A DNA stretch of 1,796 bases from Escherichia coli (lineage in GTDB: Bacteria > Pseudomonadota > Gammaproteobacteria > Enterobacterales > Enterobacteriaceae), in NCBI RefSeq assembly GCF_003334815.1, contig NZ_QOWO01000093.1; one strand, written 5' to 3'. Position numbers and translations under genes: made by a program. The notes beneath the pieces were generated by a model. It ran no database searches and was not told the DNA's origin. It worked only from the letters and a program-made list of their open reading frames with translations. Positions 1,008 through 1,361 of the stretch are shown in pieces; position 1 is the stretch's first letter; each line of letters starts with the position of its first letter.

Positions 1008-1306
1008 GAAATAGAGCAAACACTTCACCTCGTGACGAGGCAGCATTTATTAACGGTGGCACGGCTGGCCTTGATAATACCAAAAAGTCATCAGATAAAT
1101 CATCGGTTGTAAGCAAAGCAAAACCAGTGAGTATTTCTTTTTTTGAAGAAAACCTAAAAGACATTGATGCCCTTATAACGGCTGAGATGGTTTCAGGTAA
1201 AGGCAGAGTGAATCGTTCTGATGTTGTCAGGGCGGCGGTAGAAGCACTTAAAACACTATCAAAAACAGAGGTATCACGATTGATAGCAGAAGTAAAACAA
1301 AGATAA
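1004..1306 (+). CDS. Putative centromere-binding partner protein (ParG/ParB-of-type-Ib-like): ribbon-helix-helix C-terminal domain with a basic, probably flexible N-terminal tail
   Basis: GTG start at 1004 overlaps the parA stop as GTGA. Strong SD AAGAGG at 991-996 sits 7 nt upstream. The C-terminal half reads as strand (KPVSISFFEE), helix A (NLKDIDALITAEMVS), G-x-N/S/T-type turn (GKGRVNRSD) and helix B (VVRAAVEALKTL), the RHH pattern. The N-terminal ~45 residues are low-complexity and rich in Ser/Lys/Arg. The position right after a small ParA fits a type Ib partner. Confidence 0.8.
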   Translation: MRNRANTSPRDEAAFINGGTAGLDNTKKSSDKSSVVSKAKPVSISFFEENLKDIDALITAEMVSGKGRVNRSDVVRAAVEALKTLSKTEVSRLIAEVKQR

Positions 1307-1310
1307 CACC

Positions 1311-1361
1311 TTGTTATCTTGTTATCTTGTTATCTTGTTATCTTGTTATCTTGTTATCTTC
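1311..1361 (+). repeat. Tandem array of six 8-bp iterons (5 x TTATCTTG plus terminal TTATCTTC), same unit and orientation as the upstream array; putative second centromere-like site
   Basis: Direct read: partial TTG at 1311-1313, then units at 1314, 1322, 1330, 1338, 1346 (G-variant) and 1354 (C-variant). The array begins 5 bp after the ORF2 stop codon. Confidence 0.88.

Follow-up and report, generated by a model that had tools for sequence, protein, structure and literature searches.

The short palindrome at the parB stop codon of an I-complex plasmid is probably the first, flipped copy in an array of 8-bp ParB-binding repeats known from a published IncI-plasmid partition locus

Exactly the partition cassette considered here was characterized by Daniel et al. 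2020 (Genes 11:1207, PMC7602700) in pESBL, an IncI plasmid carried by E. coli O104:H4. In that work, the two open reading frames were singled out by transposon sequencing, a mini-F plasmid was stabilized by the pESBL par locus, and the GFP-fused 100-aa protein ("Hp7," renamed ParB) formed foci only when pESBL was present. The parS sites of pESBL are octamers with the consensus GATAACAA, which occur in direct and inverted orientation and flank parAB on both sides. In gel shifts with ParB, the number of complexes equaled the number of repeats, and probes of seven direct units or of four inverted plus four direct units (8-BS) were bound with comparable affinity. The sites were filled stepwise and all became occupied, with one ParB complex per octamer. 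All eight 8-BS units gave complexes, including the unit GATAACAC, which matches the consensus at 7 of 8 positions (PMC7602700).

The omega protein of plasmid pSM19035 places one dimer on each unit; its binding to a lone unit is weak, and neighboring units are occupied cooperatively (PMC9499535, PMC5016525). The orientation of the pSM19035 heptads is irrelevant to binding and to ParA activation, and contiguity of the array is essential, with at least four contiguous units needed for ParA activation (PMC5016525, PMC9499535). Ribbon-helix-helix (RHH) ParB proteins are reported not to spread past their sites (PMC9499535). In the par2 locus of pB171, the upstream array also autoregulates (as cited in PMC7602700).

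The DNA analyzed here is a stretch of 1,796 nt from E. coli (the window), whose sequence agreed at 100% identity with RCS85_pI, a plasmid of E. coli ECOR 3. RCS85_pI was typed as MOBP (relaxase) and MPF_I (IncI-type transfer system) and has a colicin Ia-like gene, which identifies it as an I-complex plasmid. The ParA (WP_000587689.1) and ParB (WP_001245884.1) of the window's source plasmid are listed under the same accessions in pMS7163B and in two pESBL records from O104:H4. The window represents the parA-parB partition cassette, of type Ib, from a plasmid of the I-complex (IncI-type), and because these accessions are shared with the published pESBL locus, its repeats are parS centromere sites and its second open reading frame (ORF2) encodes ParB. 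The preliminary description had called the repeats iterons. Replication iterons are ~17–22 bp long, lie at the origin, and are bound by Rep. The units of the window are 8 bp long and flank parA-parB, and the window contains neither a rep gene nor an origin, so this name was dropped. The features of the cassette are as follows.

4–153: 3′ end of a umuC/impB-type polymerase gene, a neighbor of the cassette
175–254, plus strand: upstream parS array of ten direct octamers (one TTGCTATC, four TTGTTATC, five TTATTATC)
278–309, no strand assigned: degenerate octamers in both orientations (CTTAACAA, CTTATTAA, TTGTTAAT, TATAACAA), which form a palindrome, with at most one mismatch to TTNNTAWC
341–371, no strand assigned: perfect 15-1-15 palindrome of the converging octamers TTGTTAAC and CTTAACAA, with 1-nt overlap, ending 10 nt before the parA ATG
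381–1007, plus strand: parA, Walker-type (type Ib) partition ATPase, 208 aa (NF041546, E = 1e-45; WP_000587689.1)
1004–1306, plus strand: parB, 100 aa, with a GTG start that overlaps the parA stop (WP_001245884.1)
1300–1320, no strand assigned: palindrome with 9-nt arms in exact reverse complement (AAGATAACA and TGTTATCTT) and a 3-nt spacer, CCT
1302–1309, minus strand: inverted parS octamer GATAACAC (reverse complement GTGTTATC), containing the parB TAA; center 1306, flip axis at unit position 4
1311–1358, plus strand: downstream parS array of six direct, perfect TTGTTATC octamers, with centers from 1314 to 1354

ParA gave a full-length match of 155.8 bits to NF041546 ("ParA family partition ATPase"), which is below the curated equivalog cut-off of 180. 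It carries the Walker A motif KGGVGKS and, as the type Ib criterion has it, is small and without an N-terminal DNA-binding domain; its PGAP name is "ParA family plasmid-partitioning AAA ATPase." The N-terminal 40 residues of ParB were predicted to be disordered, and in residues 41–99 the prediction placed two helices besides an extended segment and one additional helix at the C-terminus, which is consistent with an RHH fold. On this model, ParB is a probable RHH protein. Sequence searches with ParB against Pfam, NCBIfam, PHROGs, and the PDB, run with the single sequence and with a 9-sequence profile, returned nothing meaningful; the sole matches, N-WASP and alphaRep, were rejected as spurious. 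A Foldseek search of ParB against the PDB gave no significant match (E > 1), with RHH antitoxins as the top hits. ParA was conserved far beyond ParB (with the window as reference, 98% vs 82% in L004 and 94% vs 68% in L005).

Transposon-insertion sequencing (TraDIS) found a parAB to be required in pMS7163B. A study in PLoS Genetics 2023 (PMC10286972) calls this parAB unrelated to that of pESBL. Contrary to that statement, the ParA and ParB encoded beside impB in pMS7163B (L020) had the same accessions as those of the pESBL records and the window. Either pESBL has two par systems, or the naming in PMC10286972 is inconsistent with Daniel et al. 2020.

Upstream of parA, the degenerate octamers at 278–309 have their centers (282, 290, 298, and 306) on the lattice of the upstream array, all in phase 2. 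The perfect palindrome at 341–371 was kept in the Klebsiella quasipneumoniae and IncR relatives and nearly kept in Pantoea (L003, L004, and L005 compared), and the Enterobacter and Citrobacter cassettes have another octamer palindrome, TTATCTTA-A-TAAGATAA, in its place. This promoter palindrome is probably an operator for ParB autoregulation. The upstream array itself was highly polymorphic (175–254 compared with L008–L019), although the plasmids are otherwise 98–99% identical. It comprised 5 to 10 full-consensus-like units in L008–L019, with the variants TTATTATC, TTGCTATC, TTGTTATT, CTGTTATC, and TTGTTGTC. The run of five TTATTATC units was seen in the window only and was absent from the other plasmids compared.

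An intrinsic terminator scan of both strands of the window (1–1796) found none (1.8 expected in shuffles). Upstream of the second array and of the miniature element described below, the par operon thus lacks any obvious site where transcription would stop. The palindrome at the parB stop codon was also considered as an intrinsic (Rho-independent) terminator and was rejected, as its stem is not G+C-rich, it has no U tract, and the scan did not report it. An Rfam scan of the whole window, with E-values up to 1, gave no match.

A 286-bp element was observed at 1419–1704. It is bounded by imperfect 38-bp inverted repeats starting with GGGG (GGGGTCCGCTTGGAA...CACGCTAAG), like the termini of the Tn3 family, and has no convincing open reading frame. 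The 5-mers that flank it differ (TAATA vs TATCA), which means that no target duplication is preserved intact around it. The element matched 2,162 plasmid records (Escherichia, Klebsiella, Shigella, and Salmonella), and many of these matches stop at about window 1418 and at 1703–1705, where the element itself ends. Its features resemble those of a miniature, non-autonomous element derived from Tn3.

At the end of parB, the window reads ...AAA CAA AGA TAA CAC C TTGTTATC TTGTTATC.... An inverted copy of the repeat unit had been described at 1301–1308, overlapping the ORF2 stop and pairing head-to-head with the direct unit that comes first, and all of these coordinates proved correct on the sequence. 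The 8-nt core arms, AGATAACA (1301–1308) and TGTTATCT (1312–1319), are separated by the spacer CCT (1309–1311). The exact match extends to 9-nt arms, with AAGATAACA (1300–1308) being the reverse complement of TGTTATCTT (1312–1320). The TAA stop codon (1304–1306), which ends the 100-aa open reading frame, lies inside the left arm. In the published octamer register, the stop-codon unit is GATAACAC (1302–1309), which matches the consensus at 7 of 8 positions (one mismatch tolerated, as in the published map), and one C separates it from the six TTGTTATC units. The flipped octamer belongs to an already published system, in which inverted octamers were mapped and the same junction was gel-shifted (PMC7602700). 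The mixed probe 8-BS (supplementary table of that study) is natural pESBL sequence, with 69 nt exact at L015:1608–1676, and contains the 17-nt junction GATAACACCTTGTTATC, identical to window 1302–1318. The probe starts just 3′ of the pESBL stop-codon unit, and its GATAACACCTTGTTATC is a second copy of the junction.

The inverted copy could be a coincidence or a by-product of coding: the ParB tail K-Q-R-stop reads AAGATAA, two more bases would match by chance, and the site would not be used by ParB. The exact inverted 8-mer of the repeat occurs once in the window. In simulations, an inverted copy within 20 nt of either array end arose with P ~0.005 for 8 nt and 0.001 for 9 nt. In a codon-aware null, which kept the tail K-Q-R-stop and let only synonymous codons and the four bases after it vary, P was ~0.026, which is not extreme. 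The palindrome taken alone is only modestly significant. None of the frames of the direct repeat contains a stop codon; the inverted repeat does carry TAA (...AGA TAA...), and the flipped unit thereby supplies the parB stop. Arg and stop coding fixes five of the eight unit bases, so part of the conservation of the unit is not independent evidence, and AGA is a common Arg codon in parA and parB. The fixed bases, the P of ~0.026, and the common use of AGA favor the coding by-product; the evidence that bears against it came from the phase of the units and from related plasmids.

The phase was examined with exact TTNNTAWC matches on both strands of seven loci (ParB 60–100% identical), with each flip axis tried. 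With the axis at unit position 4, 15 of 20 opposite-orientation neighbor pairs were in 8-bp phase, and with the axis at position 8, 15 of 18; other flip axes brought 0 or 1 pairs into phase. The binomial P was ~2e-10, calculated over pairs that are not all independent. The axes at positions 4 and 8 are equivalent, with identical phase statistics from sequence. Same-orientation neighbors were in phase in 58 of 60 cases. These counts suggest that octamers of either orientation, direct or flipped, stay in one shared 8-bp phase, a rule that is newly derived here and is a modest addition to the published map. A flip about base 4 shifts the 8-mer boundary by 1 nt and thus leaves diverging junctions with a gap of 1 nt and converging junctions with either a 1-nt overlap or a gap of 7 nt, which is the pattern seen. 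Diverging examples are GATAACAC-C-TTGTTATC in the window and GATAATAA-A-TTACTATC in L007, and a converging example is TTGTTAAC/CTTAACAA (349–363) in the promoter palindrome. The common phase therefore explains the 1-nt gap, which is the 3-nt spacer of the preliminary description. The stop-codon unit, centered at 1306, and the direct units, centered at 1314 + 8n up to 1354, occupy seven contiguous lattice points. The stop-codon unit was also in phase in L003, L004, and pEK204. It fell out of phase in the type C plasmids described below and in a parA-less pESI remnant.

Ten I-complex loci with identical ParB were read, and three arrangements were found. In type A (window, L008, and L019), the stop-codon unit is followed by one C and the direct units, which gives the junction GATAACAC-C-TTGTTATC. 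Type B (pEK204, L017, and L018) keeps the unit and spacing of type A, but its first direct unit is TTACTATC, which breaks the palindrome. The perfect palindrome was accordingly rejected as the conserved feature, as pEK204-type plasmids keep the unit and its phase without it. In type C (pESBL, L009, L013, and pMS7163B), the stop-codon unit is followed by CTTGA, two to four more inverted units, C, and the direct units, so that the inverted unit is amplified to 3–5 copies in these sister plasmids. The type C stop-codon unit is off the lattice, at a distance of 13 bp to the next unit, and may be a weakly bound orphan. The search covered a plasmid collection only, which also gave the seven divergent lineages, and 497 of its records matched the junction. 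An evenly spaced sample of 60 contained ~10–12 records of type A, 16 of type B (~27%), 28 of type C (about half), and 4 others, with types deduced from the identity and the span of the matches and confirmed on four of the records.

Some further observations were made on these plasmids. In type C, the 13-mer AGATAACACCTTG occurs twice (L014/L015 1598–1725; L009, L013, and L020), with the two to four extra inverted octamers between its copies. The perfect palindrome of type C has arms of up to ~35 bp, with an RNA fold of −50 kcal/mol (z = −10.8). The direct array of pESBL is truncated where a blaTEM-1 transposon of the Tn3 family ends (GGGGTCTGACGCTCAGTGGA).

Relatives of ParB were found in ~1,500 plasmid records. 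In a K. quasipneumoniae plasmid (ParB 87%), the stop codon lies inside a perfect GATAACAA, and in IncR-type Klebsiella plasmids (ParB 82%) inside GATAATAT; both units are in 8-bp phase with the array, and GATAATAT departs from the window's unit solely at positions where units within arrays vary as well. In Salmonella pESI-type plasmids, the orphan parB (91%, no parA) has GATAACAG at its stop codon, with a 2-nt gap and the unit 1 bp out of phase. Conservation in homologous cassettes, a check proposed at the outset, was thus found as the inverted unit in relatives with 87%, 82%, and 91% ParB identity, besides its amplification in sister plasmids. In Enterobacter and Citrobacter (~60%), the C-terminus of ParB differs, and the unit over the stop codon can be read both ways and matches the following direct units (ATAATAAC, ATATTAAC). 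In Pantoea (68%), no unit with up to one mismatch was found over the stop codon. Both orientations are interspersed upstream and downstream in Pantoea, Citrobacter, and Enterobacter. Overall, a unit with up to one mismatch over the parB stop and in phase with the array was present in the window, L003, L004, L006, L007, and L016.

The octamer core TT..TAWC was recognizable down to 60% ParB identity. The pESI-type megaplasmids L002 and L010 had no parA by tblastn and, downstream of parB, one exact direct unit and one degenerate unit. Their parB looks like a decaying orphan of the cassette and occurs in ~146 plasmid records. In L011 (Citrobacter freundii pNY2385-2), a ParB of ~30% identity has the same MRNRA N-terminus, and a different upstream repeat, TGTCAC, occurs in inverted copies. 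Downstream of this parB lies a canonical terminator hairpin, and there is no second array.

The short palindrome is probably the first, flipped copy among the 8-bp ParB-binding repeats of the published IncI-plasmid partition locus and is an ordinary feature of it. As judged from phase and conservation, the stop-codon unit is likely the first member of the downstream parS array, the first of seven in-phase, putative ParB sites. Because it is in phase with the six direct units, the window is predicted to offer seven ParB sites rather than six. ParB would act as a probable RHH dimer, with one ParB unit per octamer, as published for the identical protein. The sites would lie on an 8-bp lattice, where, by analogy with omega, a two-fold symmetric dimer could read a non-palindromic unit either way with comparable contacts. 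Flipping an 8-mer about base 4 would move its boundary by 1 nt, which would produce the single-C gap at the diverging junction and the CCT spacer. The seven contiguous in-phase sites (1306, 1314 ... 1354) would be coated cooperatively to form a partition complex that stimulates ParA. The orientation of the flipped unit would have no special role, phase and contiguity would be what is kept, and the TAA of parB would be provided as a side effect.

A chance origin, which the preliminary description had allowed for, is unlikely in view of the comparative data on conservation, lattice phase, and amplification. Although coding constraints fix most of the unit, it lies exactly on the 8-bp lattice, for which the chance is 1/8, in four lineage variants (window, L003, L004, and L016). 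The free bases 3′ of the stop codon keep the unit pattern (CAC, CAA, CAG, and TAT), and the amplification of the inverted unit in sister plasmids also speaks against a site that ParB does not use. The coding by-product is therefore an improbable explanation of the unit.

The head-to-head pair had also been proposed as a specialized site, either a higher-affinity nucleation site for ParB loading or a boundary that stops extension into parB. The pair does lie at the promoter-proximal edge of the array, palindromes are often the best sites for dimeric proteins, and type A and type C plasmids both retain GATAACAC-C-TTGTTATC exactly. However, the gel shifts of Daniel et al., on probes with the same junction, showed comparable affinity for direct and mixed arrays, stepwise filling, and one complex per octamer, which argues against nucleation. 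The palindrome is broken in the pEK204-type sisters and the stop-codon unit is displaced, 13 bp out of register, in the pESBL type. In distant relatives, the stop-overlapping unit reads direct as well as or better than inverted, and orientation switches occur anywhere in the arrays. A boundary would also not be needed if RHH-type ParB proteins do not spread, as reported (PMC9499535). A specialized role of the pair is therefore quite unlikely for either function. It is very improbable that the palindrome acts as a 3′ RNA hairpin that terminates or stabilizes the par transcript: the window has no intrinsic terminator, the hairpin would lie at the operon end, and the 4+4 units of the pESBL type could form the strong hairpin noted above, but the fold in the window is A/U-rich and weak (−9 kcal/mol, z = −1.4; 15 of 200 shuffled sequences folded equally well) and lacks a U tract, the hairpin is weakened in pEK204-type and IncR relatives, and DNA binding accounts for the array as a whole.

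The reading of the stop-codon unit as an in-phase ParB site could be extended to a strict lattice code, in which orientation is free, the 8-bp phase is fixed, the flip axis lies on a base pair, and the position and number of flipped units are functionally tuned. We regard this extension as unlikely. If it were true, the stop-codon flip might determine the polarity that the ParA-stimulating N-terminal tails have at the edge of the array, the ParB complex might be a roadblock that ends par transcription where no terminator exists, and the presence of 1, 3, 4, or 5 inverted units could alter partition efficiency or incompatibility. The finding matters little beyond annotation. There, the repeats become parS of a pESBL-type type Ib system instead of iterons, and the 100-aa "hypothetical protein" becomes ParB. 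With the lattice phase, centromeres could be mapped by a simple, testable rule in IncI, IncR, and related Enterobacterales plasmids, resistance genes being carried by many of them.

Among known systems, ParG/parH of TP228 (ParFGH) differs from the window in its repeat sequence and in having the centromere only upstream of the operon, and the structural match is weak. The repeat units of par2 of pB171 are 6 bp long. Like the window, par2 is a type Ib operon between two repeat arrays (parC1/parC2), but these arrays are described as direct repeats (cited in PMC7602700). The parS of omega/pSM19035 resembles that of the window in its small RHH protein and its short non-palindromic units (7 bp there) in contiguous arrays of mixed orientation. 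There is no detectable sequence similarity between the two, and the RHH fold is only predicted for the window. In addition, the 8-bp unit of the window requires an adjustment of +1/−1 nt for a flip, and its arrays flank one parAB operon, whereas those of pSM19035 lie at three separate promoters. The pESBL locus shares with the window the ParA and ParB accessions, the octamers GATAACAA/TTGTTATC, the arrays upstream and downstream, the stop-codon unit, and the 17-nt junction. The two differ in arrangement: in pESBL, the stop-codon unit is followed by CTTGA, four inverted, and ten direct units (type C), whereas in the window it is followed directly by six direct units (type A), and the upstream TTATTATC block of the window is missing in pESBL.
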